In this document: piece by piece, positions 1-64,000 of the stretch
Numbering within the stretch: position 1 is the stretch's first letter
Layout of the letters: every line of letters starts with the position of its first letter
Virus record (IMG/VR): IMGVR_UViG_3300030333_002313
Length of the DNA: 64,000 bases
From: an uncultured virus (IMG/VR IMGVR_UViG_3300030333_002313)
Lineage: Duplodnaviria > Heunggongvirae > Uroviricota > Caudoviricetes
Strand: one strand, 5' to 3'
Program-made: the position numbers and the translations under genes
Notes under the pieces: generated by a model
The model's database searches: none
What the model saw: only the letters and a program-made list of their open reading frames with translations
What the model was told of the DNA's origin: nothing

Positions 1-206
1 GCAACTGGTTCACGGATCCCGTCGATATCTACGGGAGGAGCAGCGATGAACGCCACGATAAAGCAAGTAGCAGCAGCTAACAAGCAAGGAATCATTAGAA
101 CTCCAAACCAACCAACATAAATGCGGTTGTTTGTACTTGTAACCCACTCACAAAACTCACTCCATCCTGACAATAGACCCTGCTCTCTCTTTGAAAGAGT
201 AGTCAT
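1..206 (-). CDS. psbA: Photosystem II D1 protein, 5' part (runs off the left edge)
   Basis: Manual translation from ATG 206: [68 protein letters not shown], the canonical D1 N-terminus. Confidence 0.99.
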
Positions 207-316
207 TGAATTAATAGAACGTTTAATGTGTGCGGTATAAAAAGACTAATCCCATTCGGGAATCCTCGTGGTCTTGGTTTGAGGTAAGATGAACAGGTGA
301 GGAAACCCTCACCCGA
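207..316 (-). ncRNA. Structured psbA 5' leader, probably a PhotoRC-II-type cis-regulatory RNA
   Basis: Hairpin GGTGAGG-GTTT-CCTCACC (296-313), then a stem AAGAC...GTCTT enclosing TCCC/GGGA. Family assignment rests on position before a phage psbA, not on a covariance search. Confidence 0.55.
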
Positions 317-318
317 TT

Positions 319-353
319 TATTTATAGTAACAGAATGTTAAGCAGTTTGTCAA
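319..353 (-). promoter_or_regulatory. Dual psbA promoter: sigma70-like plus T4 late box
   Basis: TTGACA-N18-TACTAT overlapping TATAAATA (319-326). Confidence 0.7.
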
Positions 354-610
354 CTCTTATGGACGGTTTCTGAACCGCCACCCAACTGTTCTGATCCCTG
401 TACAGAAAAAGGATTGTACTTATCAGTAGCAATCCTATACATCTTCTCGTGCATCGTTACTTCTTCTTCTTGATCAACACCAGGAGGTTGTATCTCCGAT
501 GGTGATGTATCTAATGGTTCGTCTCTTGCTATTGGCATAAGGTCTAAAGGGTTTATTCTGTCATCAAACCAAGCATCATATTGAATCTTGTCTGGTGCAG
601 GATATGTCAT
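350..610 (-). CDS. Hypothetical protein
   Basis: 86 aa ORF starting immediately after the upstream stop, same strand as neighbours. Confidence 0.7.
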   Translation of the reverse strand: MTYPAPDKIQYDAWFDDRINPLDLMPIARDEPLDTSPSEIQPPGVDQEEEVTMHEKMYRIATDKYNPFSVQGSEQLGGGSETVHKS

Positions 611-880
611 CTACTTACCAGCAGGGGTCTTGGGAGGACAGTCTATAGTTACTGTGCCTGTCAATGGTTGATGTAAGTGTTCTAATACGTGATCAATCTT
701 CGCATTTATTTCGTGTAGATGTTGATGGATCTCGTTAAGACGTGGGTCAACTGGTGGCACATATGCCAATGGATCAGTTTGATATGCAGGATCAACTGCG
801 AAGGTCTCGCCAGTTGCTACGTCACCGATATCTATATTAATATCTTGTCCTGTAATAGGATCAGGTTGTGAGTTTGTCAT
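611..880 (-). CDS. Hypothetical protein with a short coiled coil
   Basis: 89 aa ORF preceded by a late box CTAAATA (902-908). Confidence 0.7.
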   Translation of the reverse strand: MTNSQPDPITGQDINIDIGDVATGETFAVDPAYQTDPLAYVPPVDPRLNEIHQHLHEINAKIDHVLEHLHQPLTGTVTIDCPPKTPAGK

Positions 881-904
881 AGTAATAGTGAAACTTAATT
901 TTAT

Positions 905-1057
905 TTAGTCGTGACGATGTGCTATACCAAGCTCGTGCATCTTAGAGTGCTCATCTATGGGATCTCTAACGTCCTTAGAACCAGGACCAAAAGTAAACCA
1001 TAGACCTACACCCACCAACGTGAGTAGTATGCCAATGATAATGAAAACAATAATCAT
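905..1057 (-). CDS. psbN: PsbN-like single-TM protein (50 aa; not in ORF track)
   Basis: MIIVFIIIGILLTLVGVGLWFTFGPGSKDVRDPIDEHSKMHELGIAHRHD: TM followed by the FGxxSxxxRDPxxEH PsbN signature; ATGA coupling to the upstream gene. Confidence 0.8.
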   Translation of the reverse strand: MIIVFIIIGILLTLVGVGLWFTFGPGSKDVRDPIDEHSKMHELGIAHRHD

Positions 1058-1404
1058 CGCTTAAGTAATGCGGGAACATCTCCGTCATCATCATCGTCAT
1101 CGTCTTCATCGTACCACGGATCATTAATCTCATTGATCCGTTCCTTAAGAGACTGTTGTAAATTCGAATCTGATGTCAATACTTTTCGTTTGAAGTCCTC
1201 GTCAGGAGTAAACTGAACCACCATTAATTCTTCACCTGGTTTCACATCCTTCATCTCTGGATGAGGTGGTCGTGTTACTTGAGTCGTGGACTCTACAAAC
1301 TTTCCACTACCTAATTGCTGTGCAGCATCCCATCCCTGTGACATCATTCTCACTGCGAGAACGAACAAGGTAAACATAAATGCTAGGAACACCCACTCAA
1401 TCAT
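1054..1404 (-). CDS. DUF2973-like membrane protein with an acidic tail
   Basis: N-terminal TM, HPEM...GEELMVV.F motif, poly-Asp C-terminus. Confidence 0.6.
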   Translation of the reverse strand: MIEWVFLAFMFTLFVLAVRMMSQGWDAAQQLGSGKFVESTTQVTRPPHPEMKDVKPGEELMVVQFTPDEDFKRKVLTSDSNLQQSLKERINEINDPWYDEDDDDDDDGDVPALLKR

Positions 1405-1549
1405 CTTTCGGTTTTGGTTTCTTTGTAATTTTCTTTATCATTTTTGCATAGTAAACATCCTGTTTCGTATACCAATCAGGATGCTCCTTCGCCAAGCGAA
1501 TTATCTTCTTGGCTGCTTTTCTGTTTTGTTTTCGATTCGGGTCTGGCAT
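1397..1549 (-). CDS. Small basic hypothetical protein (50 aa)
   Basis: Likely start at the internal Met: MPDPNRKQNRKAAKKIIRLAKEHPDWYTKQDVYYAK. Confidence 0.6.
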   Translation of the reverse strand: MPDPNRKQNRKAAKKIIRLAKEHPDWYTKQDVYYAKMIKKITKKPKPKDD

Positions 1550-1751
1550 TGTGGTACCACTTAATGTATAGTCGTGCGAGGTCAGACCTGAAACAAATTT
1601 CATCCTCTCTGAGTTGTTTGTATTCTCCTGAGTCGATAACCCAATCGCAAAATCTATAGTCTGCATAGTCTAATTGACCTTTGCGATCAACACAATCCTG
1701 CAAACATCGTCTACGTAGTTCAACGATTTCGTCTGTGATTTTATAGGTCAT
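1476..1751 (-). CDS. Hypothetical protein
   Basis: 91 aa ORF whose start overlaps the upstream gene end. Confidence 0.55.
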   Translation of the reverse strand: MTYKITDEIVELRRRCLQDCVDRKGQLDYADYRFCDWVIDSGEYKQLREDEICFRSDLARLYIKWYHNARPESKTKQKSSQEDNSLGEGAS

Positions 1752-1911
1752 TGATCATCCTCACGTTTTTGTAATAGGGTACGTAGTCTTTACCGAAATT
1801 GCAAAGATTAATATAGAAGTTTGCTTTTGTCTCAGACAGTCCACAATACTTCCTTAAAGTGATCCAGTGATCTGGTTTCTCCTCAAGTTGTAAACTGTAG
1901 GTACGTTTCAT
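1741..1911 (-). CDS. Hypothetical protein (56 aa; not in ORF track)
   Basis: MKRTYSLQLEEKPDHWITLRKYCGLSETKANFYINLC...; ATGA coupling to the upstream ORF. Confidence 0.6.
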   Translation of the reverse strand: MKRTYSLQLEEKPDHWITLRKYCGLSETKANFYINLCNFGKDYVPYYKNVRMINDL

Positions 1912-2057
1912 TCTTCTAGAGATTTGTTTGTTATCACAATCTTATCGCCTTCGATAGTAAATTGCAACTCGTCATCGTGGTCCCACATTAATTCTTCATA
2001 AAGAGAATTAAGTCGTTCCATATCTTCCCAAAGATCATTAACGTGATGTTCATCCAT
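1908..2057 (-). CDS. Small acidic protein, possibly AbrB-like (49 aa; not in ORF track)
   Basis: [54 protein letters not shown] coupling to the petF stop. Confidence 0.6.
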   Translation of the reverse strand: MDEHHVNDLWEDMERLNSLYEELMWDHDDELQFTIEGDKIVITNKSLEE

Positions 2058-2347: not shown

Positions 2348-2384
2348 TGATTAAAAACAATTCACTGCTATTTATTATAGCATT

Positions 2385-2410: not shown

Positions 2411-2423
2411 ATTGTATCGTGAC

Positions 2424-2602: not shown

Positions 2603-2603
2603 T

Positions 2604-13962: not shown

Positions 13963-13995
13963 AGCTCTAAGGCAAGTTCCTAAGAGTATATATGA

Positions 13996-19354: not shown

Positions 19355-20548
19355 TCACCCCCAGTTCTTCTCTATATTGAAGTTGGCACGGGAAAATTCA
19401 ATACGATCAACAAGTTTGAGTGCTTTTCCAGCTCTAATGGCAACAAAACCTTCTGGTGAAGTTACTTTAAACCCAGTATCAGTCTTGAGATAGGTGCCTA
19501 CGCTCTTTACTGCATTAAGTTTCCTAATAACTATATTTTTTGCGGATATTAGGTTCATATATGATGCCACAGTCATATAAACTGCTCTAGAATTCTGCTT
19601 TAAGAACTTCTGTCCGTCTGTTTTTATCTTTTCATATTTCTTTTTAGTAGTAGGTTGTTTAACTGAAGAAATTTGCTTATCTAATAGAGTGACATAGAAG
19701 TTTTCAAATCCTGCTGCTACTTTTTGTACGTTAGCAATTGCTTTACCACCCCTTACATAAGAGTTAAAGTACTGTTTGAATAGAGCAGAGAATAAGAACC
19801 TACCATCACCTGTACCACCAAGTATATCTAAGAACTTAGATGCTTGCTTCAATGATCCTACTGTCTTATTAACCTGAGCATTGAAGGCAGTCTTCTCTTT
19901 TGGTGTGAACGTTGACTGTCCTGACACATCTTTAAACGTAGCAGTACCTGAGAATACCTTAGTAGTCTTAGTAAAACTTCCACTAACGTCACCCAATACT
20001 GCATTCATAGATGCCATATCAGAACCACTATATTTTGTATGGAATACAATACCAAACTCTGCAGCATTAACTTCCTTATAGATATCAGATCCTTTCTCTA
20101 CACAATAGGTAATAGTATTAGGTGTGAAAGTAATACAAGACTTACCATCTATCCTCTTCCTAACCTTATCACCATTACTGAATAACATATCACCCTGTAG
20201 TACACCCTTAATCTTAAGTGTACTTAGATATTTCAATGCTAGTTTTAATTTCTTTGCTAGTTCACCACTATAACCGTGAAATTCTATATCACTCTCAACA
20301 TATATGATCTTAGGATTGGTCTTATTAAATACTGATTTAGTTCCCACAAAGAACGCTTCTGTCTCAGGATTGATACCACATACAATAGCAGGTGCTCCAT
20401 CCCATTTAGTAGTGACAGTAATAGCACTCTTAGGTTCTGACAACATCTTTCCCAGTTCTTTCAGGAAAGCAATAGCATTCTTACCACCATTTGATCCTTG
20501 GTTTAGGATGTCATCTTCAAGGTGTTCGAGGTGAGTGTTCTTAGCCAT
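19355..20548 (-). CDS. Conserved phage protein (DUF6267-like); putative ligase / covalent nucleotidyltransferase fold
   Basis: KWDG, LQGDMLF, SPEGFVA and LKLVD occur in the order of ligase motifs I, III, IV, V. Confidence 0.6.
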   Translation of the reverse strand: MAKNTHLEHLEDDILNQGSNGGKNAIAFLKELGKMLSEPKSAITVTTKWDGAPAIVCGINPETEAFFVGTKSVFNKTNPKIIYVESDIEFHGYSGELAKKLKLALKYLSTLKIKGVLQGDMLFSNGDKVRKRIDGKSCITFTPNTITYCVEKGSDIYKEVNAAEFGIVFHTKYSGSDMASMNAVLGDVSGSFTKTTKVFSGTATFKDVSGQSTFTPKEKTAFNAQVNKTVGSLKQASKFLDILGGTGDGRFLFSALFKQYFNSYVRGGKAIANVQKVAAGFENFYVTLLDKQISSVKQPTTKKKYEKIKTDGQKFLKQNSRAVYMTVASYMNLISAKNIVIRKLNAVKSVGTYLKTDTGFKVTSPEGFVAIRAGKALKLVDRIEFSRANFNIEKNWG

Positions 20549-20552
20549 ATGC

Positions 20553-21563
20553 TTATGCGTCCTTTAATACTATAACATTAGTTCGACCTTCCATCAATGC
20601 TTTTGGGTAAATCCCCACACGTGCACCCTTATATTTCTGTTCCAGATATGTGAATCCTCTATCCTTACGGAAGGTAGCACCAAATACTGCTTGATAACCA
20701 TCACCTTTAGTGAAAGCATCTACACCATTACGATCATTCCAAACGGTATGCTCCCATTTTAAATCCCAACAGTTATCATTTTTCCAAGTCATAACTGCAT
20801 TGCCTTGACCTAAAACGTGACAATTATTCTTACCAAATTTTGTACTATTACCATCTGCATCAGGACCAAACACTGACATACGAATTAAATTCTCATCCTT
20901 TATTTCCTTCATTACTGGTACTTGTAACTGATCCTCATCTACATACGCAGCAGTCTGTTTTAAAAATTCCTGTGTTTGTTCGTGCATTGCTATCTTCCTT
21001 CCTGCTGACTTAGACACACCACCATACTGTTGAAATGCTTTTGGACCACCTGTCTTCTTATGTGATATCCAAAATATCTCCTTACCCTTCTTATCTACGA
21101 TAGCAAAATCTGCTTTAGGTGTACCTTTAAGTTCTTCAACACCACAAGCACCTACAATATTACCTATAGGTGTACATATTGTTGCTTCTCCTAGACACTT
21201 AACTTTCTCCTTTAATATTTTATCTAATTGTTTCATAGCAGCCCGTTCTGCTTTCTTAGTATCTGTAGTCCTAGTCTTTATATCAGGTTTAAGTATATGT
21301 GATACCATAATATATCCAGGTCCAGACTGACCAACCTTAGCTAGTACACACTTGGACTTCTTGTTTGGACCACACTGAGATAGTTTAGGTGATTGTATTT
21401 TAACAAGAGTACCTTTCCTACAAGTACATTCAATCTTCTCCTTCGATGATTTATCATACATCAAAGTATCTTTAAGTAATGTCAACCTAATAGATTTCCA
21501 CTCAGGATTATCTTCTATGAGTCTAGCTCGAGCTGATGGTGTTGTAATTCCTTTATCTGCCAC
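20553..21563 (-). CDS. Putative PD-(D/E)xK restriction-like nuclease
   Basis: E..A helix followed by TPKADF...WISHK, an S-x-K variant of the catalytic motif. Confidence 0.5.
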   Translation of the reverse strand: MADKGITTPSARARLIEDNPEWKSIRLTLLKDTLMYDKSSKEKIECTCRKGTLVKIQSPKLSQCGPNKKSKCVLAKVGQSGPGYIMVSHILKPDIKTRTTDTKKAERAAMKQLDKILKEKVKCLGEATICTPIGNIVGACGVEELKGTPKADFAIVDKKGKEIFWISHKKTGGPKAFQQYGGVSKSAGRKIAMHEQTQEFLKQTAAYVDEDQLQVPVMKEIKDENLIRMSVFGPDADGNSTKFGKNNCHVLGQGNAVMTWKNDNCWDLKWEHTVWNDRNGVDAFTKGDGYQAVFGATFRKDRGFTYLEQKYKGARVGIYPKALMEGRTNVIVLKDA

Positions 21564-24897: not shown

Positions 24898-25900
24898 ATG
24901 CGAACTCCTTCTTGGCACACTCATCTAGTGCTTGCATTACTTCGGGGGTGAAGTACTTGTCAGGATCTTTGAGCATAGCAGAAGGATATACGCTAGAATC
25001 GCCAACAACAATACGGTTCCCTTTACGCTCGAAAACTCCATATTTCTCACCCAGTTCCAGTAGTCCGTAGTATGGATCAAGTCCTCTCTCATCATAGAAT
25101 AACCTCGTAGAAATTTTTGCACTCTCTTTTGTGAACCTACTCTTCTTCGTTTCACATTTAATAATGTTACCAATCACTTCCTTACCATCTTTCTCTTTAG
25201 ATTTACTCAAGAATATGATAGTAGATGCAGCATATTTTAATCCACTTCCACCACCCATTTCTTTCGTAGGCATATAAGCACCTACAACATCATAGGTATG
25301 GTTGGTAACTATTAAGGGAATATTGCATTTTGATAGTTTAAGTGTAAGAACTCTAAAGATTGACTTAACAACTTGTGCTCTAGTCATATCTCTAGTCTCT
25401 TTACCTGCTTCACTATCCTCAATCTCTTTGGTTGTTGATAACATACCAAGAGAGTCAAGAACAAATAACATAGGAGGATGATTCTTATCCTTCAATAAGT
25501 TATCTGCTACCATCAATGCTTGTTGTCTGAACTGTTGAACTGTTACCACAGGTATGATAACGACACGTTTGGTATCTACACCACGATCAGACAATAGATC
25601 TTTACTGATAGCACCTTCTGATTCAAAGAATGCTACACCTGCTTCTGGATGTGTCTTGAGGAAGTGTTTAATAACACTGATCGTGAAGAACGTTTTACCT
25701 GTAGAGGACTCACCAGCCAACGCAGTAATCTTGTTGGAAGGTATACCACCATATATGGAACCGCTAACAAGAGCATTAAAAATGTAACTTCCAGTGTCAA
25801 TAAAAGAAGATACATCGCCAGCAGCAAGACCGTCGTCAGCGATTGAAGCGTATTCATTATCAATGGATTTAATAATATCTTTTAAAAAGGATGTGGTCAT
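24887..25900 (-). CDS. uvsX: RecA-like recombinase
   Basis: [22 protein letters not shown]. Confidence 0.97.
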
Positions 25901-28368
25901 AGGAAAAATTCTTCTAGGGATGCTACTTTCTCTGCCTTCCAGTTGATCGTATCAAGGATGACCTGTAAAGGATCAAGGAAACTCTTCTTAAATTGTAGAT
26001 CGTAATCTATAGATTTGTCAAGTTCAAATTCACGTGGAAGAGTCTGGAAGAAAGAGACCACGTTCTCCCCTATTCGGTTCGGAGTCCTGAGATAGAGGAA
26101 CTTGACCTTCTCTCCTTCTTGGATAAGAGGGTACTTATGTGTGAGTTTCTTATGCTTAACGTGGAAATTATATAGGAGAGCACCACGAACGTGGATTGGA
26201 GTACCCTTAACATATATCCCAGAGGTACCACTAAATTTAGATAGATTATTGCAACCTCTAGGGAAAGCAATATCTTCAGGAGGAAGCGATTCAAATTCTT
26301 TTCTAAAGTTAGCAATGTATTCTTGTACATCTGTCTCTGATCCGTTCATAATAACTCTCAGGGCACTTCTAATCGCATCACGACAAGAACCTGGAGTTGA
26401 GGATTTGACACACTCGATACCCATAACTTTTAGTTTGGGTTCTTTATATTGAACACCCTCACTGTTCCATACATTAAGGATGTATCTCTTCTTAGCAGTC
26501 CAGATGCCTTTGTTAGCGATGTTCTCTCGCTTCATAAACATCTTCTGGTCATATGCATTTACATAGGTTGCCAGTTCTTCGTAAGAATTCTGAATATACT
26601 TTTCAAGTTCCACGTCACACACCTTCTCAAGGAACCTAAGAGTGTCCTTATCGCTCTTCTCTCCGTTCTTGAATACAGCTTTAACCAGAGGACCCAAATT
26701 AAGATAAATGGAATCGGTATCAGAAGCAATGACATAATCAGTCTCCGTAGTTTTTAAAATTTTGTTAAGGTAAGAGTTAACCTTGTTCTCAATCCATCTG
26801 ATAGAAACCTGACCTGATAGAGTAATCGCTTCAGCGTTAGCAAGGTTATAGTACCTGAAATACTGGTTGCCTATGGCACCATAGGCAGAGTTCAGTTGGA
26901 TCTTACGAGCCATCTGTATATTATTATATGCAGAAATATCATCCTGTAGTTTTGTGTCACCAGTTTCCTCATATTTCTGCTTCGCTGCTAACATCTTTTT
27001 CTTGAAGATCACACGTTCATCGTAGATCTTCTGCATCATCTCAGGAAGGAATCCGTGGATGTCTCTGCGATATTGTGCTCCGTTGGCACACAATGAATAG
27101 TCCCCTCCGACGGAAACAGTTTGATTGAGCAGTCCTTCAACAGTGGCGGTGGGGTGTCGTCTCTCCACAAGGGTTTCGGGAGAAATATTATACTGCATAA
27201 TAAGATGAGGGTAGAGGCTGTTGAGGTCAAAGCTAGCAACCCAGTTATAAAGACCAGGCTTTGGCTCCTTGACATATGCACCAGCATACTTGTCATCTTT
27301 CTTCGCTTCGATTTTCGGCGGGACACAGATCTTACGCTCCTTTAGGTAATTGTAAATAAGTGTATCCCAGACTCGCACCTGTGAATACACATCTTGGAAG
27401 TTAACCTTAGCATCATAAGACATAACCACTGCTAGTTCCAGTAGTTTCATCTTCTTTTCAAGTCTGTGTACGAGGTCAACGTCTTTGATGTTGTACTCTA
27501 CAAACTTATCCCAGTCATTAGTATAGAACGCTTTAAAGTTCTCATACTGGGAGTGATCAAGTTTACCTTCTCCAAGTTCAACTGTAGCAATATGCTCCAG
27601 TCTATAAGACTCTTGATTGGTATAGGTGAACTTCCTATACAGATCTAGATAGTCTAGGATTGATACCCCTAGTATATCATATGAAAGGTTCCTACGTCCT
27701 TGGATGTAGACCTCTCTCATATTTACCTTATTCCAAGGTGACATACTCTTCTGATACTTATCACCTAAGATACGTTCAATCCTACGACAGATATACGGTA
27801 TGTCATATAAGTTACAATTCCATCCTGTAATGATGTCAGGAGTATTCTGTACCCACCAACTGTGGAAGTCGGCAAGCATATCCTGTTCATTAGAGAATGA
27901 TCTATAATTCTGACCATTATAATCTCTAGTACCCCAAGTCATAAACTTGCCACTAGCAAGATCCTTAATGGTAATAAGGAGCATTCTCTCAGCACACGCT
28001 TCTACATCAGGGAATCCATTCTCACATTCAACCTCGATGTCAATAGTATAGATCTTCATCAGATCCATCTGTGCACGCATATCGTGAGGATACTTCTCAC
28101 TAATCCACTGGTATATAAACCTCTCGTATCCGTGGACTTCAAATCCATCCACACCTTTATACTTCTCAATAAATTCTCTGGCACGTTTGGCACCATCCTG
28201 TTTCACAGGTGCCATAGGTTGACCATCAAGTGTCCTCCACTTACCTTTAGGTGATGGAACAAAGAGAGTTGGTTTTATAATATCTCTATATGATACAGGT
28301 TCCCCATCCTCATACCCTCGGCAAAGGATGGAGTCCCCCAACAGGGTCACATTTGTATAGATTCTCAA
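25897..28368 (-). CDS. gp43: Family B DNA polymerase (T4 gp43)
   Basis: Exonuclease [24 protein letters not shown]. Confidence 0.99.
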
Positions 28369-29164: not shown

Positions 29165-29183
29165 CTGTTGTACATTATATAGG

Positions 29184-29372
29184 TCACCAGTCATCGTCAC
29201 TGGTTTGTGACTCCACCCATTCAGCATTGTTTCGACAGTATGCATCAGCATCTATCTCCATCCTCCAGTGGGTGAGGGTGTGAAGGGTCTCAACCATTAG
29301 GAAGAGACCCAGTATCAGCACAGGTCCTATCCATAAGGGGTGCATAATTATTTCACCTGGTGTTCGTTTCAT
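29184..29372 (-). CDS. Small single-TM protein
   Basis: ATGA coupling to hsp20; TM segment then HTLTHW. Confidence 0.7.
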   Translation of the reverse strand: MKRTPGEIIMHPLWIGPVLILGLFLMVETLHTLTHWRMEIDADAYCRNNAEWVESQTSDDDW

Positions 29373-29824
29373 CCTATATCATACACCTTTTTCTTCTGTG
29401 CTTCAGGCAACACACGAGTCAAGGTTACATTAAGTAATCCATTGTTAAGTTTCACGTCAGTAACCTCAACATCATCTGACAAGTTGAATGACTTCTCAAA
29501 TGAACGTGCTGCTATTCCTCTGAAATTATATTCTCCTTGTTTATCCTCTTGGACTTTAGTAGATTTGATATGGAGTTGATGTCTCTCTGTAGAAACTTCG
29601 ACATCCTCCTTACTCCATCCTGCTAATGCCATCTCTATCTTCCAAGTATCGTCACTCTCTTTGACGATGTTATATGGTGGGTAAGATGTGCTTTGGGGGT
29701 TCAATCCAAATGCGTGTAATCTTGTTAGTGTGTCATCTAGTCCGACACTATACTTGTTGATTGCGTCAACAAGAACGTCCATATCTTTGGACGCAAAATT
29801 TGAGAACCTTGTAAGTCCAGTCAT
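29369..29824 (-). CDS. hsp20: Small heat shock protein (IbpA-like)
   Basis: YPPYNI, LAG, RGIAARSF, NGLL. Confidence 0.97.
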   Translation of the reverse strand: MTGLTRFSNFASKDMDVLVDAINKYSVGLDDTLTRLHAFGLNPQSTSYPPYNIVKESDDTWKIEMALAGWSKEDVEVSTERHQLHIKSTKVQEDKQGEYNFRGIAARSFEKSFNLSDDVEVTDVKLNNGLLNVTLTRVLPEAQKKKVYDIG

Positions 29825-29888
29825 TGTTTTTCTCCTTTAAAAGCGAGTTTGTGTTTTGTGGTCCCTTTCGGCAACCACCTATATTTAG
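29825..29888 (-). promoter_or_regulatory. hsp20 late box and ROSE-like two-hairpin leader
   Basis: CTAAATA; hairpin GTGGT-TG-CC-GAAA-GG-G-ACCAC; CTCGCTT pairs with AAGGAG. Confidence 0.55.
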
Positions 29889-29995
29889 CGTGAATAGTAC
29901 AAATATACAAGTACGGTTGAGGTAGAAATGTCCGTATTGATACCGATTTTTAATGTTAATTAAAGCTAAATAGGTACGAAAGGTATCGTGGAATT

Positions 29996-30521: not shown

Positions 30522-30992
30522 ATGAGACGTATAGGACTCCTACTATTATGTTTCTTTGGTGTACCATTGAGAACCCTTGCGGTGCCTGTGGTCCCCAACT
30601 TTCAGCAAGGCTCGATGACGAGCCACACAGAAACTGAAAGTACCATAACGGAGACCATAAATTCTATAGATTATCGTACAGGATGGGAATACTCAGTGAC
30701 AGGGGTAGGCGTTTCCAACAATGGAGAAGCACTCAACCCCAACGTGAACACTTCAACAGTGACAATAAATCCAACAGTAGGATCGGGAGACGGAGCCATA
30801 ACAGGTTCGGTCACTTCTCAATACGACAACTTGGATTTCAACAATCAAGGAACCTTCACGATAACAACTCCAGGAGAAGCCTTTCAATTTACCCAGAGTT
30901 ATCAAGGACCAGGGATGACCAACCAAACTCTCATACAAAGGGTCACCCAGATAAAAAGCGTCACAGACACAACAAGTACGTTTACCCAGTAA
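30522..30992 (+). CDS. Exported beta-rich protein with a Sec signal peptide
   Basis: MRR, hydrophobic core, TLA cleavage site; VPVVPNF; Thr-rich. Confidence 0.85.
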   Translation: MRRIGLLLLCFFGVPLRTLAVPVVPNFQQGSMTSHTETESTITETINSIDYRTGWEYSVTGVGVSNNGEALNPNVNTSTVTINPTVGSGDGAITGSVTSQYDNLDFNNQGTFTITTPGEAFQFTQSYQGPGMTNQTLIQRVTQIKSVTDTTSTFTQ

Positions 30993-32050
30993 TTGCAGCA
31001 CTTCTCAGCGTTCAATGTTTACCTTCAAGAGCAGAAGGTGTGGGTGGAGTTAGTGCTACTGCCAATCCAATAGCTAATTCTTCGGGCTCAGTAACTAACC
31101 AGGCAATACAAGTTTTACAAGGTCCATATATAACTAACACTTATGGTGGTGGTGTACAGTGTCAAGGTAGTACATTCAACGTGACACCATACATCCAGTT
31201 TGCTGATTCAAGGAAAGATCCTTGGGAAGATTTCTATAATGATCCACAATATAATATGACTGATGTGTCTGGTAAGACAACCAAACAGGTAGTAACAGTT
31301 AAGAACTATCCTTGGGAGTCTTGGTATGACACAAGGACAAAGGCAGATGGAACTAGATGGTTCCCAGATGGCGAAGATATGCAGATAGAAATAGATGTTG
31401 ATGGTCCTGATGGTGTCCCAGATGCAGTAACCAATGGCAATATGGATCCTACGTGGTACAAACCAATACGTACGGATATGAAAGCCAATCAAAGTTTTAA
31501 TGTTGGTGTATCTGCAACCCTATCAATCCCATTGAATAAGAAACTGCAGCAGCAATGTCACGAGGCTGCACAGGCACAAATTAATATGCAGAATCAATTA
31601 GTATCTAATAAGCGTTTAGATTTTGAGCTCGCAAGATTGAAGAATTGTGGTGAGCTCAAGAAGTCTGGAATATTTTTCCATCCAGCATCACCTTATCACG
31701 CAGTGTGTGCTGACGTGGTTGTTACTGCACCTGGTGGACAGGTCATTCCACATCAACATAACATAAGCAGACCTACTTTTGAGGATTCTTCTTCGGACGC
31801 TTCTTCTTCAGAGGAAGAAGTCCCTTCTTCTTCCGATACTCATCAGCCCGTATCTCAGAACGAGAAGGACGATAAGTTGTCTTTCCTAGGATTGAGTTTA
31901 CCTTGGTCACGACCTTCTTCACAACAGGTTTCACCACCCTCAGCAGCAAGTCAGCTAGGGGTTTGGCAAGTAGGGCACTCGATGCAGCCACAGATGCTAT
32001 CACCGCAGTCGTCGTCACAATCTGAGGAGACGGAAGATACTGCTCAGTAA
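30683..32050 (+). CDS. Exported or membrane-anchored Cys-containing protein (start uncertain)
   Basis: Hydrophobic VIAALLSV..SRA segment, SATANP..SSGSVTNQAIQ, coiled coil RLDFELARLKNCGEL. Confidence 0.75.
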   Translation: MGILSDRGRRFQQWRSTQPQREHFNSDNKSNSRIGRRSHNRFGHFSIRQLGFQQSRNLHDNNSRRSLSIYPELSRTRDDQPNSHTKGHPDKKRHRHNKYVYPVIAALLSVQCLPSRAEGVGGVSATANPIANSSGSVTNQAIQVLQGPYITNTYGGGVQCQGSTFNVTPYIQFADSRKDPWEDFYNDPQYNMTDVSGKTTKQVVTVKNYPWESWYDTRTKADGTRWFPDGEDMQIEIDVDGPDGVPDAVTNGNMDPTWYKPIRTDMKANQSFNVGVSATLSIPLNKKLQQQCHEAAQAQINMQNQLVSNKRLDFELARLKNCGELKKSGIFFHPASPYHAVCADVVVTAPGGQVIPHQHNISRPTFEDSSSDASSSEEEVPSSSDTHQPVSQNEKDDKLSFLGLSLPWSRPSSQQVSPPSAASQLGVWQVGHSMQPQMLSPQSSSQSEETEDTAQ

Positions 32051-32684
32051 GTCCAATATCCTCATACAACGTTACACATATTTTTACACCATCAGGGTTC
32101 TTAGGATCCCTCTGTAATTCAAATCCACTGACCTTCTCTTTCTGGTTCTGTGCTACATCACCTATACGTGGTGCCAATGGACCTGGACAGGGAGGGTCTC
32201 CGTCTGGTTCCTCTGTATTAGGTCTCTCAGGAGCACCAGGTGGCTCAGGTGCATCAACATCTCCTGTATCTACACCGTCTGGTTCATTCTCTTGTTCAAC
32301 TGTAATAGTTTCCCAACTTAATGATCTAGCATCATAGTCAGGTGGTTCATAATATGGCATACCTGCATCACATAATACCGTATTACCTTTAGGGTCATCA
32401 TTGACCAACATCTTATTATTATTTCCTTTCGTATTCTCCTTGTGTACTTTGACACAACCAGGCATATCAACTACAGGAGTACCAACCACTGTAGTAACTG
32501 GAAATGTTAATCCTTGAACAGCAGGTACATCATTCATCCACGATCTATCTGCAATATATGGTGTTGTTATAGGTCTTATATCATTTGAACTTGTATTAAT
32601 AAAAGGAATCCTCGTACCATTGACAGTTATGTCATAGATACGAGGACCAATAATGGTTACGTTTGGTACGTTAATGTTACCCAC
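31773..32684 (-). CDS. Pro/Cys-rich protein with a C-terminal TM and basic tail
   Basis: VDMPGCV, several Cys, TM VTTTAVIASVAASSALLA. Confidence 0.8.
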   Translation of the reverse strand: MGNINVPNVTIIGPRIYDITVNGTRIPFINTSSNDIRPITTPYIADRSWMNDVPAVQGLTFPVTTVVGTPVVDMPGCVKVHKENTKGNNNKMLVNDDPKGNTVLCDAGMPYYEPPDYDARSLSWETITVEQENEPDGVDTGDVDAPEPPGAPERPNTEEPDGDPPCPGPLAPRIGDVAQNQKEKVSGFELQRDPKNPDGVKICVTLYEDIGLTEQYLPSPQIVTTTAVIASVAASSALLAKPLADLLLRVVKPVVKKVVTKVNSILGKTTYRPSRSEIRADEYRKKKGLLPLKKKRPKKNPQK

Positions 32685-35804: not shown

Positions 35805-36187
35805 CTCACTCCTCCAGTATTCAGTTTTGATTTGATCAATTCGATCTGATCTTTAGTCAGAATTCGTAATGCATCCCGAGCTTTGTCATTGTTATAACCA
35901 AAGTATTGCTTAATAAGATCAAGGTTCTCTGCCTTATCTTTTTTAAGCCAGGGACTGTAACGACGCTTCTTTCTGAGACTATTTAGATAAAACGAATATT
36001 GCATATCCTTGTCGAGATGATGCATCTTATTAATCTCATTTGCATACAAAACTGAATCAATATGACCTGACAAACATTTGTTCACAATATAAGATGGATA
36101 CTTCTGCATCCAGTCAGGACCACGTTCTTGAAGATCCTCCTTAGTCCAGTTAACACTGTTGAGGTAGTCAGATAGTTTGTATGTCAT
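35801..36187 (-). CDS. gp62: Clamp loader small subunit (gp62)
   Basis: Position before regA; YIVNKCLS, KQYFGYN..KA. Confidence 0.92.
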   Translation of the reverse strand: MTYKLSDYLNSVNWTKEDLQERGPDWMQKYPSYIVNKCLSGHIDSVLYANEINKMHHLDKDMQYSFYLNSLRKKRRYSPWLKKDKAENLDLIKQYFGYNNDKARDALRILTKDQIELIKSKLNTGGVR

Positions 36188-37035
36188 TTTTGTTCAAAGA
36201 GATCTAATAGGGTGGAGTTATTGTAATTTGTTATGAGCAATTCCTTACGTTTGGACTGATCTAAATTATAAGATCCAGTTGATCTCATAGTATAAGTCAG
36301 ATCCCATTCAGTCAAATTATAATTATCAAATAATTTTTTAATAGAATCACTAGAATTATATGTGATCATCCACTTCTTACCAGATGTAGAACAATCTAAT
36401 GCAAAGACATCGTGAGTGAAGTTCCTATGCATAGTACCACCCTTCTCACCATAAAGGAAGGACTTAATATCATATGGTGGATCCATAAAGACAAAAGCAT
36501 CTTCAGTGTCCTTAAGAAGTGTAGTGTAATCTAAGTTTGTTATCTTCCAGTTCTTAATGATATCAGAATAACCTGATAGTTTATCAATACCTCTCTGTGA
36601 GAAGTTTGAAACAGATGCTTGTGGTGAGAACGATGAGTTCTCTCCTAGTCCTGAGAAGGAACACTTGTTAAGAACATAGAAGTATGCTGCATTCTCATAT
36701 GGAATTGTAGCCTCTTTAATATTCTTCTTAGCATCATTGAACAGTTCTCTTGCCTTATCAGGTGTGTTATATACACTCTTTAATTTTGTAAGTTCTTCAG
36801 TTAGATCATTAGGACAGTCTCTTAATGCCTTCCAGAAGTTAGACAAATAGAAATACTTATCATTAACCCATACAGGTATGTCTGGATTCTGTTTAGTAAA
36901 CTCTAAAGCAACAGAACCACCACCTAGGAATGGTTCACGATACTCTTTAATATTGGTAGGGAACTGTCCAATAAGATACTTCGCTGCTCTGGATTTACCT
37001 CCAGGATATCTTAATGGTGTCTTCAATGCTTTCAA
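36184..37035 (-). CDS. dam: DNA adenine methyltransferase (Dam/D12 class)
   Basis: RYPGGKS, EPFLGGGS, DPPY, ELLITNY. Confidence 0.95.
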   Translation of the reverse strand: MKALKTPLRYPGGKSRAAKYLIGQFPTNIKEYREPFLGGGSVALEFTKQNPDIPVWVNDKYFYLSNFWKALRDCPNDLTEELTKLKSVYNTPDKARELFNDAKKNIKEATIPYENAAYFYVLNKCSFSGLGENSSFSPQASVSNFSQRGIDKLSGYSDIIKNWKITNLDYTTLLKDTEDAFVFMDPPYDIKSFLYGEKGGTMHRNFTHDVFALDCSTSGKKWMITYNSSDSIKKLFDNYNLTEWDLTYTMRSTGSYNLDQSKRKELLITNYNNSTLLDLFEQK

Positions 37036-50746: not shown

Positions 50747-52209
50747 TTCTTGTCTCCTAAATTAATCTCAGTGATGCCATAACTGAACTTCTCATCGTTA
50801 TAAATTCTGATCCGTTCAGTCAAATGGTTTAGAGTGAAATTTCTAAACTTACCATTACTAATGTCATCAGCAAAATCATAAAGTGTAGCACGTGCCTTTG
50901 AATCGTGCTTCCTCAAGGCTCTACCTATTGATTGTAGGTTCCGAACTCTTGATTTAGTTGGTGAGGCAAAGATAACATTATGTAGGTTCTTGATATTGAT
51001 ACCTGTACTAAAGGTACCGTACGAAGCAAGGATGATAGCGTTGTCAGACGCTTCACAGATTTGTCGTACTTCTTCACGTTCATCAGTGGGGACACCACCG
51101 TGAATATAAAACAAATGTTTAGATTTGTTATTACTATTTAGCATTTCCCACAAAACGTCTCCGTGCTTCTCGATAAAATTGAATAGTATCAAGGTGTTTC
51201 CAGAGATATCTTTTGCTAGTCCAGTGATGATTTTATTCCGTTTCCTATTACCTATGATATAATTTATCTCATCCTGATAAGAATCAAATCCAATGTAATC
51301 GTGCTTACAGACTAGAATGTTGATCTTTAACTCTGATAGATACGAAGACTTCTGTAGGTCTGTTGTCCTAATACTTCTTTCTACGGGACCAAATAGACCT
51401 TCTAATACTAACTGGTTGCATTGAAGACCGTCGAGAGTACCAGTAAGACCCACGCGAAAGTTAGCGTTATGGCACTTATTAAGAATGGACGTAAGTGATT
51501 TTGCTTTGTATAAGTGTGCTTCATCTCCTATTACCGCATCGAAACGTTTAAAGTATGACTTGTCTTCCTTATAGATTGACTGCCACGTACTAATTATAAC
51601 CTGAGCCTTAGTGTATTTTTCTTTACCACCATAGATCTGATCTACAGTACCTTGACAATAGAATCCATATGATTGAAAATCTTTATATAATTGTTCTACT
51701 AATGATGTTGTTGGTACTATGATTAAGACTTCTAAGTTCCTTTGTATGTACCATCTCATCAAACAATATATTATTAAACTCTTCCCTGATCCAGTTGGGC
51801 TGAGTATAAGCCGTCTATATCGACGAAGTGCTGAGTAAATTGCTTTGAGTTGGTAATCTCTTGCCTTGATAGGCATAGCCAGAGATCGAACAAAACGAGC
51901 AATTGTCTGCGGTGTAACTTCTGCATCTGTGTCTCCTGGTTTTCCGAATTGTTGATTATCTTCGATGGTGTACTCATACCCCATCTTCTCCAACCATTCA
52001 ACCAGGTAGTGATAAAGTCCTACGTACAGCTCACCAGTGCCAGGAGAATACAGACGGATCTTACCATCCCATCTCCTGTACCTACGCTGTTGTTGTAGGA
52101 ATTTTGCTTCAGGAACTTCAAAGGTAAAGTACTCAGACAATTCGTGATGAATATGCTGCTCAGTACCTATCCTAAGATAGACATCATTCTTTTTAACAAT
52201 GGAAGTCAT
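50743..52209 (-). CDS. uvsW: UvsW RNA-DNA/DNA helicase
   Basis: PTGSGKS, DEAH, QSIGR.LR. Confidence 0.97.
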   Translation of the reverse strand: MTSIVKKNDVYLRIGTEQHIHHELSEYFTFEVPEAKFLQQQRRYRRWDGKIRLYSPGTGELYVGLYHYLVEWLEKMGYEYTIEDNQQFGKPGDTDAEVTPQTIARFVRSLAMPIKARDYQLKAIYSALRRYRRLILSPTGSGKSLIIYCLMRWYIQRNLEVLIIVPTTSLVEQLYKDFQSYGFYCQGTVDQIYGGKEKYTKAQVIISTWQSIYKEDKSYFKRFDAVIGDEAHLYKAKSLTSILNKCHNANFRVGLTGTLDGLQCNQLVLEGLFGPVERSIRTTDLQKSSYLSELKINILVCKHDYIGFDSYQDEINYIIGNRKRNKIITGLAKDISGNTLILFNFIEKHGDVLWEMLNSNNKSKHLFYIHGGVPTDEREEVRQICEASDNAIILASYGTFSTGINIKNLHNVIFASPTKSRVRNLQSIGRALRKHDSKARATLYDFADDISNGKFRNFTLNHLTERIRIYNDEKFSYGITEINLGDKK

Positions 52210-56297: not shown

Positions 56298-56951
56298 CTA
56301 TAGAGAGTTCATAAGTTTCTGGAATGCGGAAACTTTCATCTCTTCGATTACTTTTTTGTTTGGAGCATTGTCCAAACCTTGCTTTATTGTGCGGAGTTCA
56401 CGTTCTTTCAGGATTGATCCTTCCCAAACCCACTCTCTTCCTTCCATAATGCCTTCGACAAAAGCGTCTGGTGCACTGGGATCTGCCACAATATCAGCAG
56501 CAGTGGCAAGCATAAAGTCATCAGCGACAACATTTACACCTTCACTAGTCCTTTTTAGGGATCCAATCCCGCGTGAGGATACCCCTAACTTGACTCCTTC
56601 ACCTAAAAGAGACCTAGCAATGTTACCCATAGGGGTGTCAAGGATACGTGCTCTTCCTTTGAAGTTGGTTCCATCTTCTTGCAAAGATGTAATTAGATGA
56701 GATACTCTATCTAGGTTAACAGTTGGACCTTCGGGGTGACCGAGTTCTCCAAGTGCTCTACCAGACTTAACAAAAGATTCGTTGTACTTATCAACTTCTC
56801 TTCTGAGAGTTGCCATAGGATACATCCTTCCATTGCGATTTTTAATCTCGCCCTGGAGAAACGTGCCTTCGATATACAGATTCTTTTTGCCATTCTTAGT
56901 TTCTTCTTCAAGAACTTGAATGTCGTCAATCTGTTCCGTTATCAGTCTCAT
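56298..56951 (-). CDS. gp21: Prohead protease (gp21)
   Basis: NRNGRMY, GELGHP, GVSSRG, DIVADPS. Confidence 0.98.
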   Translation of the reverse strand: MRLITEQIDDIQVLEEETKNGKKNLYIEGTFLQGEIKNRNGRMYPMATLRREVDKYNESFVKSGRALGELGHPEGPTVNLDRVSHLITSLQEDGTNFKGRARILDTPMGNIARSLLGEGVKLGVSSRGIGSLKRTSEGVNVVADDFMLATAADIVADPSAPDAFVEGIMEGREWVWEGSILKERELRTIKQGLDNAPNKKVIEEMKVSAFQKLMNSL

Positions 56952-59539: not shown

Positions 59540-62320
59540 TCAGCTAGTTACTTCAGCGAAACTAGAACCAGTTCTAGTAGCAGTGAAGGTAAGTGTGATG
59601 TAATTGATCGACCTCGTAGGCTTCACGAATATCTCCGCAAAGAATTCCCCACGATCAATTGCTTCGGGTGGGTTGTTGCTGCTGTCGCAAACAACTAGGA
59701 AGTCCACTACACCACGACGTGACTGAACACTACGTAGGAATGGTTCCACAATATTCTTGAATGAAGCACGAGTGAACTCGTCATTCAATTCGAATAGTTG
59801 TGTCTTAGCTGCTTCTGAGATAGCATCCTCAAGTACCAAGAACAAACGACGAACGTTAATTCTGTCGAATGCAGACTGGTAAGATAGTGCAGTCTTATCA
59901 CCGAATAGTACAATACCCTCACCAGGGAATGATACTACTGGGTTAATACGTGCAGCATACAAGCGATCTCTATGATCCTTAAGAGGAGAATATGCTAGTT
60001 TAATTGCGTTTCTTAACTGACCTCTATTGAATCCTGCAGGTGAGAACCACGCTTCTGAATTCAGAGTTGTGCTTAGTGTTAATCCTGCAAGGTCAGCGTT
60101 ACAAGCGATGTATCTATACTTGTCGTTGTACTTATCATAGATGTACTTGTAGTTGTTATCAAATACAGCATAAGATGTAGAAGATAACTGATCGAAGTAA
60201 TCAATAGTACGATTTACTATGACGTTAGTATCGCTCTGTCCAATCACATCTTGACGTGATGGTGAAACGAATGCCATACAATCTTTACGAGTTGCAGCAA
60301 TGTCGATGATCTTCTGTGCTTTTGCAATAGTGTCACTGGTGTCTGCCATCGATGGACCCATTAGGATGTAGTCAACATCAATAGTTTCCTTGTCAGCAAC
60401 AAGGTCGAATGCACCGAGGATCTCTCCACGTGCTAGTGTATATCCATCAACACCACCCTGTAGGGCGTACTTGACGGTTGCACCATTTGCTGTTCCGATG
60501 ATCTCTCTACCAAGAGGAGTTTCATTAGTCTTGATTGCAGATTGTTGCTTAATCAAGTCGAACTGGGTTCCAATACCTGTTTGTCCCCAATCTCCGTTAG
60601 CAGATCCATTTACATCGAACAACTCTGAGGTCTCGTGTGATCCCCAGTAAATGTACTGTGAATTGTTCTTAATGACATCTTTATAGTAGATTGTCTCTCC
60701 TTGTACACCCTTAGCATCAGATGCTTTAGATACAAAGAGGAACTTCTCAAGAACAGATCCAGGAGTACCTGTTAGTTTTCCATCTCCATCAAGGATGATG
60801 ATGTGCATCTGGTCATCAGAACCACCACGATCAGCAACCCAAGGTGAAGTTGTAGGACGTGGAGCGATTGCGTTCCACTTCTGACTGCCACCGAAATAAC
60901 GCTCATCATACTCAGAGCGTACAGAAGCAACAGTTATGTTTGGTGAACCACCACCATTATCATCTTCGATAGTGTAGTTTGGTTCAAATCTATTAGCGTT
61001 TGAATCTTTAAGGATGTGAAGCTGACGATTGATAACAGTTACCTTTGCCTTGTCTCCAGTCTTAGATCCACCAGAGGCAGCAGTCCAAAGAGCAATAACA
61101 TCACCGACTTCTAAAACGTCAGATGATAAGGAATAATTGATATCAAGTTCAATCTTACGAGTGATAGGATCGTATGCTTTAACAGTACCTTGTACTGCGA
61201 TACTTACAGGTGATGCAGCATCAGTTTCTGCTCTCCAGAACTCACCAGTATTAAAATCACCAGCAATTGAAGGAGCGTCAAGAGTTGCTACGACTGTGTA
61301 ACGATAGATCTTAGCAGTTGCGTTTGCAGCACTGTATGCTACATCGCTAGTTGTTTGGAATTCCCACTCAGCACTTGACGGTTGAGCAAGAGAAAGAATT
61401 TGATCAGGACCAGCATCTGTAGTAACAACACGGAGTGAATTACCGTATGTACCTGGATGTCTAGAACCCCACTTCCAAGCGTTAGAACCAGACTCAACGT
61501 TTGCTTCGTACTCTTCAATGTTACGTATGATAGGTACGGTAACACCTGTAGAAGTTGTCTCGTTGATTGTGGTCTTAGCAGCAGTAACTGTTAACTTAGT
61601 AACTGTCTGTCCATCTGTCTGAGTTGCAGCAGTAGTTTCTAATGCACCACGAGAAACAGTCAAGTCGTTTCCAGAAATTCCAGAAATTCTTAGAATTTCA
61701 TCAGCGATCTTGATGTAATCGTTTGTACTAACACCAAGTGCAGCAACAGATGTAACGGTTAGAGTTGTTCCACCAGCAGCCAAGGTTCCTCCTTGGTTCA
61801 TTGTGGTAGAAGTACCAGCATCTTCAATCAATGTGATTGAGGAGCTAGCAGCGTGACTAACTGCAGAAGTTGATAGCTGTCCACGTTGTACTGTTAGGTC
61901 TAGTGAAGTAATCACTGTTACCTTAACAATTTCAGCGTCAATTAAGAGGTAATCATCAACTGCTATATCAGCTGCACTAGCAACAGTCAATGTAGTATCA
62001 CTAGCACTGAAGGTTGAAGATGTAGTCTGAGCAGTATCAATTCCATTCTTTAGCGAGGTTGAGTTCGCACGAATAACTTTTAATGTACCGCCGTACAATA
62101 GGAACTGAGCAGCGTTGTACCAGTACTCGTAGTTGTAATCGTTAGGTCTGCCAAATACAGATAGCAACTCCTTCTCAGAAGTAATATCTACTATCTTATT
62201 GACTGGACCCTTTTCAAAGGAACCTACTACCACCGCAACATTATCAAGAGTAGCATTAGCTACCGTAGTGAGATCCTTTTCAAGTACAACAACCCCTGGC
62301 GAAAGTTGGGTGGATGCCAT
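59540..62320 (-). CDS. gp18: Tail sheath protein (gp18), enlarged
   Basis: SPGV..E.D, WFSPAGFNRG, INVRRLF; late box at 62363-62369. Confidence 0.98.
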   Translation of the reverse strand: MASTQLSPGVVVLEKDLTTVANATLDNVAVVVGSFEKGPVNKIVDITSEKELLSVFGRPNDYNYEYWYNAAQFLLYGGTLKVIRANSTSLKNGIDTAQTTSSTFSASDTTLTVASAADIAVDDYLLIDAEIVKVTVITSLDLTVQRGQLSTSAVSHAASSSITLIEDAGTSTTMNQGGTLAAGGTTLTVTSVAALGVSTNDYIKIADEILRISGISGNDLTVSRGALETTAATQTDGQTVTKLTVTAAKTTINETTSTGVTVPIIRNIEEYEANVESGSNAWKWGSRHPGTYGNSLRVVTTDAGPDQILSLAQPSSAEWEFQTTSDVAYSAANATAKIYRYTVVATLDAPSIAGDFNTGEFWRAETDAASPVSIAVQGTVKAYDPITRKIELDINYSLSSDVLEVGDVIALWTAASGGSKTGDKAKVTVINRQLHILKDSNANRFEPNYTIEDDNGGGSPNITVASVRSEYDERYFGGSQKWNAIAPRPTTSPWVADRGGSDDQMHIIILDGDGKLTGTPGSVLEKFLFVSKASDAKGVQGETIYYKDVIKNNSQYIYWGSHETSELFDVNGSANGDWGQTGIGTQFDLIKQQSAIKTNETPLGREIIGTANGATVKYALQGGVDGYTLARGEILGAFDLVADKETIDVDYILMGPSMADTSDTIAKAQKIIDIAATRKDCMAFVSPSRQDVIGQSDTNVIVNRTIDYFDQLSSTSYAVFDNNYKYIYDKYNDKYRYIACNADLAGLTLSTTLNSEAWFSPAGFNRGQLRNAIKLAYSPLKDHRDRLYAARINPVVSFPGEGIVLFGDKTALSYQSAFDRINVRRLFLVLEDAISEAAKTQLFELNDEFTRASFKNIVEPFLRSVQSRRGVVDFLVVCDSSNNPPEAIDRGEFFAEIFVKPTRSINYITLTFTATRTGSSFAEVTS

Positions 62321-62382
62321 TGTTTAAATCTCCTTGAAAAATCTATCAATTAGTCTTGAAATTATTTATGATTCCCTCTGTT

Positions 62383-64000
62383 TCAACGGTACTCCCACAT
62401 AAATGCTCGGTCTCCATATTCATCTACGTGCCAGCGATCTCCGTCTCCATCTACAAATGATTCATCATCCATACCGTCATTAATGAAACCAAATGGAGCC
62501 ATATCAGCATCTATTGCTTCTCTCTGTTCTTCATACATTCTCTTACGAACATCATTGTCGTGAAGTTCTTTAAAATAATCCTGTACAGATAACCACGCAA
62601 ATAAAACCAGACACATTGCAATGTCATCGTGGCATCCTTCTTCTGCTTGCCAAGACTGACCCTTTTGAATGAATGTGGTTAGTTCAGCGATAGTATCATA
62701 ATCATTAATAAGTATCTTATCGTCTTCTATCAATCCTTTAAGGTTAGAACATCCTACCTTCTTTACAGTAGAACTCATCTTAACACCAAGTTGTACCTTA
62801 CCACCTGAGAACCCTTGACCAACTACCTGACCAGCACGTCCCCTCATAGCACACATCAATAAGTTTTCATATTCCAAATCATACTGAACTATGTCTGCTA
62901 CCTGTGCACCAACGTCATTAACTTCAATTAATATGTACGCTTCATTATATCCCTTAGCAACTTCAACAATAATATCTGGGAAGATAAGGGGTTTAATTGT
63001 ATTGTTCCTATACTTAGCAACTAATTTATAAGGAATCGTAGTAGTATCAAATACAGTGAAAGCACTATAGTCTCCATCGATACCTCTCGCCACATCAACT
63101 GTGATTGTATAATTATGTTCAGGGATAGGGTCTTCATAAACGTCAAGTCCTTTGTTACTGGTTATAGGATCATCATAGGCTAATGCTCTTAGTTTAGATG
63201 CTGATATTAATGTGTCAACAGATCCTAGGAATTCACATTCGAACTCAACTCTGAATTGTTGCTCTGATGTATTACGTATAGTTTGTTCTTTCCATTCAGC
63301 ATCTCTGCCTGGAACCTGAGACCAATGTACCTCAGTATGTGTGTATTCATTCGTACCACGCTCTGCATCGTGCCAGAGCTTGTAGAACATATTCATCCCG
63401 TGAGGGGTAGAAATGATAATAACTTTAGTTGACTTACCAGAAGATATAGTAGGATACACAGAACTAAAAAACTGCTCTGCAATATTATTCGGAACGAATG
63501 CGAATTCGTCCAAAAATATAACGTTAAAGGACATACCCCTAACAGCACTAGCACTAGTACTTGCAGCCAAGAGACGGCTTCCGTTCTCCAATTCCACTGA
63601 CCCTTTGTTCCAGCCAATAATACCTTGCTGCATCCATTTAGGAAGATTCTCATAAGAAAGTTGTAGGCGACCCAACATTTCTCTTGCAGTGGCTGCTTTG
63701 TTTGCGAGGATTGCGACGTTGACATTAGGATTAAAAATTACATACCAAAGTAGATACGATGTTACAACTGTTGATTTACCAGACTGTCTTGGAAGCTTAG
63801 CAATATTGAATCGTTTGTTATGGAAACGATTCACCATATCCTCTTGGAAATCATAGAGGTTAAATGGGATAACACCCTCATCCAAAGAAACGATCTTGAT
63901 ATACTTCTTAATAAAGTAGATTGGATCTTTGCTGCACTTAATAAACTCCTTCACCTGTTTAGGTGTGAAGTTTGTGGCAACGTTTGCTTTCTTTAGATTC
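62383..64000 (-). CDS. gp17: Terminase large subunit (gp17); start lies beyond the right edge
   Basis: PRQSGKS, LDEFAF, STPHG, DVARG, HDD; the frame is open to 64000 (NLKKANVATNFT). Confidence 0.98.
   Translation of the reverse strand, partial: NLKKANVATNFTPKQVKEFIKCSKDPIYFIKKYIKIVSLDEGVIPFNLYDFQEDMVNRFHNKRFNIAKLPRQSGKSTVVTSYLLWYVIFNPNVNVAILANKAATAREMLGRLQLSYENLPKWMQQGIIGWNKGSVELENGSRLLAASTSASAVRGMSFNVIFLDEFAFVPNNIAEQFFSSVYPTISSGKSTKVIIISTPHGMNMFYKLWHDAERGTNEYTHTEVHWSQVPGRDAEWKEQTIRNTSEQQFRVEFECEFLGSVDTLISASKLRALAYDDPITSNKGLDVYEDPIPEHNYTITVDVARGIDGDYSAFTVFDTTTIPYKLVAKYRNNTIKPLIFPDIIVEVAKGYNEAYILIEVNDVGAQVADIVQYDLEYENLLMCAMRGRAGQVVGQGFSGGKVQLGVKMSSTVKKVGCSNLKGLIEDDKILINDYDTIAELTTFIQKGQSWQAEEGCHDDIAMCLVLFAWLSVQDYFKELHDNDVRKRMYEEQREAIDADMAPFGFINDGMDDESFVDGDGDRWHVDEYGDRAFMWEYR

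Follow-up and report, generated by a model that had tools for sequence, protein, structure and literature searches.

A cyanophage genome free of CATG and a candidate PvuII-fold nuclease that may account for it

The window we analysed, a 64,000-nucleotide stretch of phage DNA, does not contain a single CATG, where a Markov model on trinucleotides expects 225.5 (z -26.8). The word is equally absent from the whole record, G000 (0 against 420 expected in 124,563 nt), and from a composite in which a sister contig, G006, supplies the missing 66 kb (0 against 682 expected in 190,443 nt). The probable reason, and one we hold with reasonable confidence, is that the phage encodes a PvuII-fold nuclease, a predicted CATG cutter, without its partner methyltransferase. 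A sequence-only reading of the window had noticed the purge, guessed at about 200 expected copies and ascribed it to a CATG-directed nuclease, either one of the host or one of the phage that spares its own genome by lacking the site. The exact Markov-corrected 4-mer counts it proposed as a check bear out the purge. The evidence supports a CATG-directed nuclease as the selecting agent, and of the two options a phage enzyme that spares itself agrees best with the data, but the gene that reading had singled out, at 20553-21563, does not stand as the driver.

CATG is kept out through synonymous codon choice. In 38 long window genes, histidine before a codon starting with G is always CAC (62 cases, none of CAT), as the sequence-only reading had said (all four of its examples do read CAC); elsewhere CAT is used 107 times and CAC 59. 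Ala, Thr and Pro codons with a final A before TG number 0 of 47, against 1336 of 3120 elsewhere, and codons with a final C before ATG number 0 of 200, against 205 of 709 before other AT codons. That reading had GCG, ACG and CCG in their place before Trp, but the main substitute before TG is xCT (36/47), with xCG accounting for 7/47. Base composition and assembly artefact were considered as causes and rejected, since GATC, GTAC and ACGT, of the same composition, occur about as often as expected and separate contigs give the same picture. GATC, common in the earlier account too, stands at 352 against 388 expected in the window (0.9 of expectation), with exactly eight sites in the first 900 nt. 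A longer site containing CATG (RCATGY and the like) was likewise rejected: every flanking context is absent here, and carriers that retain the methyltransferase show no single missing context.

The window is half of a T4-like cyanophage genome (Table 1). Relatives carry psbA, one copy being 90% identical to that of P-HM2, and among the proteins scanned those nearest to the psbA of G006 are from Prochlorococcus, which makes Prochlorococcus the likely host. G006, an IMG/VR contig, is a 99.99% match to G000 for 16.7 kb at the end of that record and for 13.4 kb at its start. It carries a different cassette beyond window position 13,963, and we therefore regard it as a sibling or a mosaic assembly, not the same molecule. 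Absence of CATG is a trait of one clade, whose members have gp43 at least 78% identical where gp43 is present. Six of 80 loci recruited with the helicase have at most one CATG, and all six are close relatives; the remainder have a median of 0.68 of expectation, with three below 0.35. Among loci recruited with a gene near the window start, 15 of 80 have at most one CATG. The Dam-like methyltransferase is unrelated to the purge, occurring as it does in phages with and without CATG. Two reading frames deserve a mention in passing: one of 455 codons at 30683-32050 (+), which matches PHROG 848 and overlaps a minus-strand gene at 31773-32684, and one of 8,596 codons in the baseplate and tail region (G000:91551-117341), CATG-free like the remainder.

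Table 1. Features of the window and of the sister contig G006 (positions are those of the window unless a contig is named)
Feature	Position	Strand	Basis or remark
Replication and head-gene half of a T4-like (Kyanoviridae-type) cyanophage	1..64000		Gene content
DUF6267 gene, slot marker	19355..20548	-	Upstream neighbour varies among relatives
336-aa nuclease-like protein: SH3-like N terminus and PD-(D/E)XK-type domain	20553..21563	-	Fold match to R.CviJI, Nt.CviQII
gp43 DNA polymerase, lineage marker	25897..28368	-	71% identity to P-RSM6
Dam-like D12-class adenine methyltransferase	36184..37035	-	Found in phages with and without CATG
Remaining CGCG site	51453..51456		One of two in the window
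Remaining CGCG site	56570..56573		Second of two in the window
172-aa PvuII-fold gene, intact open frame	G006:21925-22443 (= L248:2925-3443)	-	Fold search
304-aa SPPY amino-methyltransferase	G006:24724-25638 (= L248:5724-6638)		2.3 kb from the nuclease

The candidate nuclease came to light when we went through the genes that had no annotation in the missing part. Its gene sits among the small early-region genes of G006, roughly 5 kb past the end of G000 and 60 kb ahead of window position 1; that part is absent from G000, and the gene is linked to it through the two near-identical stretches of G006. Among 48,161 PDB representatives the best structural match to the 172-aa protein (predicted structure, pLDDT 92.5) is PvuII, with Z 13.7, rmsd 3.8, 152 of 157 residues aligned and 18% identity. 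The next-best folds are NhoI (Z 10.8), Eco15I (Z 9.1) and DpnI (Z 7.2), all of them modification-dependent enzymes. It was the fold search alone that found PvuII: PDB sequence searches with the protein or its alignment gave no PvuII match, and the protein itself has no match to Pfam PF09225. Its homolog P0196 does score 26.8 bits against that family's cut-off of 25, and the P-TIM68 copy 18.5. The search returned 1,391 homologs; across 107 of them E42, D61 and E71 are invariant and K73 is at least 90% conserved, leaving the PD-(D/E)XK residues intact. Promoter calling gave nothing convincing upstream. Parts of the gene are covered by metatranscriptome contigs, two runs at 99% and two from a relative at about 90%, though such contigs cannot show transcription. 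A 185-aa HNH gene in the missing 66 kb was set aside as the cutter, having merely three homologs and none in cultured phages.

In many relatives a small NPPF amino-methyltransferase (165-197 aa) lies directly after the nuclease gene, and the G013 pair shares 4 nt. Of 50,697 phage records, six have the nuclease (from the cultured phages P-SSM2, P-SSM5 and P-TIM68), and those with the small methyltransferase (identity of at least 77%) are the same six. In cellular genomes the nuclease turned up in just three short MAG contigs, and of 42 bacterial relatives of the small methyltransferase none has it alongside. That methyltransferase was not found in G000, G006, G010, G011 or G012, which makes the form in this clade an orphan derivative rather than a complete Type II restriction-modification system.

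CATG follows this arrangement. We counted 95 nuclease loci, near-duplicates included. The 47 with the small methyltransferase hold 762 CATG against 2313 expected (pooled 0.33), and eight of them have 0 or 1. Of the 48 without it, 32 have no CATG and 16 retain sites; eight of those 16 have or share another amino-methyltransferase adjoining the gene, and the other eight are short records. On the nuclease tree 31 of the 32 zero-CATG loci group with this clade (gp43-checked for some), and the remaining one, G030, is distant, so that the orphan nuclease with zero CATG is found in only two lineages. G030 is a phage contig, 27% complete, with cobS at 48% and CCGG at 1.06; one further locus of its lineage has a methyltransferase adjoining the gene and CATG at 14 against 46 expected. 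Where the nuclease lacks the small methyltransferase, the counts against expectation are 0/682 in this genome, 0/644 in G012, 0/177 in G010 and 0/147 in G011 (40 kb counted in each of these two) and 0/168 in G030. Where a methyltransferase is present the ratios are 0.23 in G013, 0.45 in P-SSM2 (over 200 of 252 kb), 0.55 in P-TIM68 and 0.72 in G014, and the nearest nuclease relatives that retain the partner methyltransferase (72-76% identical) have 104 CATG against 261 expected. Among 11 phages without the nuclease, most of them sampled at 100 kb and S-T4 at 31 kb, nine stand at 0.69-0.80, G008 at 0.52 (171/327) and S-CAM7 at 0.19 (137/736), every one below 1. Across the 136 four-base words tested, CATG alone separates nine nuclease-without-methyltransferase records from these 11 non-carriers. 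Along the P-TIM68 genome (W02) CATG goes from 0.31-0.49 of expectation within the first 100 kb to 0.58-0.72 beyond it.

From these counts we favor CATG over AGCT or CAGCTG as the predicted site of the nuclease, and we infer that nuclease and small methyltransferase together form a phage restriction-modification system reading CATG. Imperfect methylation during fast replication would then cost carriers their CATG sites. Once the last site had gone, the methyltransferase would be dispensable and could be lost. The orphan enzyme would thereafter bar any new CATG, as sites that arose would be cut, and it may act on the host chromosome and on co-infecting phages, for nucleotides or for exclusion. 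Somewhat less firmly, we lean toward a general form of this account, in which cyanophages tell self from non-self by absence of the site: a restriction-modification pair thins CATG, the methyltransferase is lost, a 190-kb genome is locked at zero and the orphan enzyme shreds the DNA of host or rival, all of which would have originated at least twice.

The most serious alternative divides the labor differently. An NlaIII-like Type II system of the host would have purged CATG, and the PvuII-like phage enzyme would read AGCT or CAGCTG, with the SPPY methyltransferase protecting the phage; if the AGCT or CAGCTG reading were right, the loss of CATG would need such a host enzyme. CAGCTG is the site of PvuII itself. 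The SPPY enzyme is missing from G010, G011, G012 and G030, and these four orphan records are nearly free of AGCT (0 against 72 expected, 1/70, 16/395 and 0/105, respectively) and have no CAGCTG, whereas this genome, which bears SPPY, keeps both (AGCT 260/650, CAGCTG 26/44). Among nuclease-bearing records, AGCT is near zero in those lacking the SPPY enzyme and less depleted in those that have it, so the enzyme possibly protects AGCT or RGCY. But G012, with neither methyltransferase, retains its 16 AGCT and not one CATG, and its lack of CAGCTG follows from a wider loss of RGCY (52 against 807 expected). AGCT is also low in non-carriers (0.24-0.51 in nine of 11), and five cultured phages without the nuclease possess the SPPY enzyme, which is therefore not tied to the nuclease. 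On these grounds we rank the AGCT or CAGCTG reading lower. In the early region of small genes, L248 (G006:19001-39000), AGCT is much rarer (1 against 41 expected) than over the whole genome (0.40), and the same regional scarcity is seen in bins of the nuclease-less phages P-SSM4, P-RSM4 and Syn9.

Host enzymes have probably done this kind of work on other words. Host Type II sites are completely lost in about a tenth of phage genomes, according to the accessible parts of one survey (PMC6286503). In our window CCGG (0 against 23 expected) and GCGC (0/26) are missing, both strands being free of either; the sequence-only reading had suspected their scarcity. CGCG is down to 2 against 18 expected. 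Over the record CCGG stands at 0/43 and GCGC at 0/41, AGCT has a ratio of 0.39 and GGCC of 0.44, and GACGTC, CGATCG, GTCGAC and GRCGYC are all at zero; the 66 kb supplied by G006 likewise have no CATG, CCGG or GCGC. Both four-base words are also at zero in P-RSM6, P-SSM4, P-SSM7, P-HM2 and P-SSM2, and CCGG is at or near zero in eight of the 11 non-carriers. Since non-carriers can lack them too, the loss of CCGG and GCGC is independent of the PvuII-fold gene, and forces other than that gene can evidently purge a four-base word, CCGG having had a tenth as many sites. The avoidance of CCGG, GCGC and the 6-base palindromes is probably a separate, family-wide matter of host enzymes. Other cyanophage lineages purge other words: GTAC in G007 (0.04), GATC and AGCT in L084, L130 and L131, GTAC and GGAC in L102 and GAAC in the L108 group (loci L108-L117 among those noticed).

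For CATG the host account fares less well. Mild depletion in the non-carriers, and the strong depletion in S-CAM7, speak for it. The nuclease-less Prochlorococcus phages (P-SSM4, P-SSM7, P-HM2, P-RSM4 and P-RSM6) nevertheless retain CATG at 0.69-0.80, and Prochlorococcus DNA itself, at 30 loci, has 1459 CATG against 1640 expected (0.89, about 2.7 per kb), with no marked avoidance. A search that covered the D12 class of methyltransferases matched three of 30 picocyanobacterial genomes, many of them incomplete. A host enzyme also leaves unexplained why CATG should track the nuclease and the small methyltransferase. We consider this alternative unlikely, while giving it real weight. S-CAM7 (W09), which has no PvuII-like gene, may be under some other CATG pressure; it encodes a D12-class methyltransferase of divergent sequence at 29167-29904.

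It is very improbable that the PvuII-like enzyme is instead modification-dependent, cutting methylated CATG, with the phage having dropped the site to escape marking by its host. The next-best folds invite the idea, but PvuII clearly outscores them, and the 47 of 95 loci that couple the nuclease to a methyltransferase yet retain CATG are the opposite of what it predicts.

The window gene at 20553-21563 was the driver proposed by the sequence-only reading. Its restriction-nuclease fold matches chlorovirus R.CviJI (Foldseek E 4e-15, TM 0.56) and, more weakly, MspI (Z 7.7), HhaI and HinP1I (both Z 6.8); E106, D152 and S167-H168-K169 are invariant; and alleles from CATG-free loci form one branch with support of 99. 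RGCY, the CviJI-type site, occurs 510 times in this genome against 1064 expected, and PF00145, the C5 methyltransferase family, has no match in G006 or among the window genes scanned. The single branch, however, mirrors how the phages themselves are related. A search run without a positive control turned up no member of the family in G010, G011, G012, G006 or G030 (local tblastn agrees for G012); the first three of these records belong to the CATG-free clade and are complete or nearly so. In that clade the slot upstream of DUF6267 is occupied by no fewer than three unrelated nuclease-like families, other CATG-free relatives having an unrelated protein of 485 aa or of 271-278 aa, and homologs of the gene sit mostly in CATG-rich phages. 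When relatives with and without the gene are compared, loss of CATG does not track it. We rejected it as the cause on this evidence, which already largely refutes it as the CATG cutter and leaves that role extremely unlikely. The gene evolves fast, with alleles 38 to 100% identical where gp41 stays at 91-100%. Its slot is worth attention for its own sake: across T4-like cyanophages (window 19355-21563; loci L263-L327, L252:10773-12230) it holds at least eight unrelated families, several with nuclease-like motifs, and the whole cassette is swapped between the nearly identical G006 and G000. Locus L276 looks recombinant, with CATG confined to its first 6.2 kb. That some other, unrecognized clade-wide phage gene drives the purge, with the PvuII-like gene a fellow traveler, is barely credible: many small genes do lack a family and the clade is one evolutionary event, but the PvuII-fold gene is implicated by the distant G030 and by carriers from several lineages that have a methyltransferase and intermediate levels of CATG.

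We return, then, to the orphan PvuII-fold nuclease. It resembles R.PvuII (Type IIP; PF09225; PDB 1ni0, 3ksk) in its small size, its near-whole-chain fold and its PD-(D/E)XK acidic and lysine residues. It differs in being phage-encoded, in its predicted CATG site and in a partner, the 165-197-aa NPPF methyltransferase of its relatives, that this clade has lost. T4 keeps host-DNA nucleases alongside modified phage DNA. Avoidance of restriction sites is known, as in the GANTC depletion of pelagiphages (PMC9516812). The accessible text of Rusinov et al. 2018 (PMC6286503) describes full loss of short palindromes through synonymous changes, which fits our CCGG, GCGC and 6-base palindromes, but the sites there are those of host-encoded systems, whereas the pressure on CATG here comes most likely from the phage's own enzyme. 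Chlorovirus PBCV-1 encodes the restriction-modification systems CviAII, which reads CATG, and CviAI (PMC7248222). The paired cyanophage forms would act like CviAII, as a virus-encoded CATG nuclease with its methyltransferase; PBCV-1, by contrast, is a eukaryotic virus that keeps and methylates its own sites, and none of the analyses we ran linked the PvuII-like protein to R.CviAII. The Mom-REase fusions of jumbo phages are nucleases predicted to hit host or superinfecting DNA and spare self, but self is marked there by chemical modification (PMC7824862) and here by absence of the site. Our searches of openly accessible articles turned up nothing on a PvuII-like nuclease that lacks its methylase or on CATG-free cyanophages, and the accessible parts of PMC12707154 and PMC12801897 do not mention the PvuII-fold gene. 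Site avoidance and virus-encoded CATG restriction-modification are thus known; what would be new is a PvuII-family nuclease that has no partner and spares its own genome because the site is missing from it.

If this reading is true, it gives a clear example of a genome that can retain a restriction enzyme with no methylase because it has rid itself of every site, and the intermediates can be seen in relatives. It predicts a 4-base cutter on a PvuII scaffold, and as the cultured phages P-SSM2 and P-TIM68 carry the paired nuclease-methyltransferase form, the reading is directly testable there too. It would also warn that a phage avoiding a site is not necessarily answering to an enzyme of its host, a point that bears on host prediction. 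And for Prochlorococcus phages the orphan nuclease would be a candidate mechanism for the breakdown of host DNA or the exclusion of rivals.
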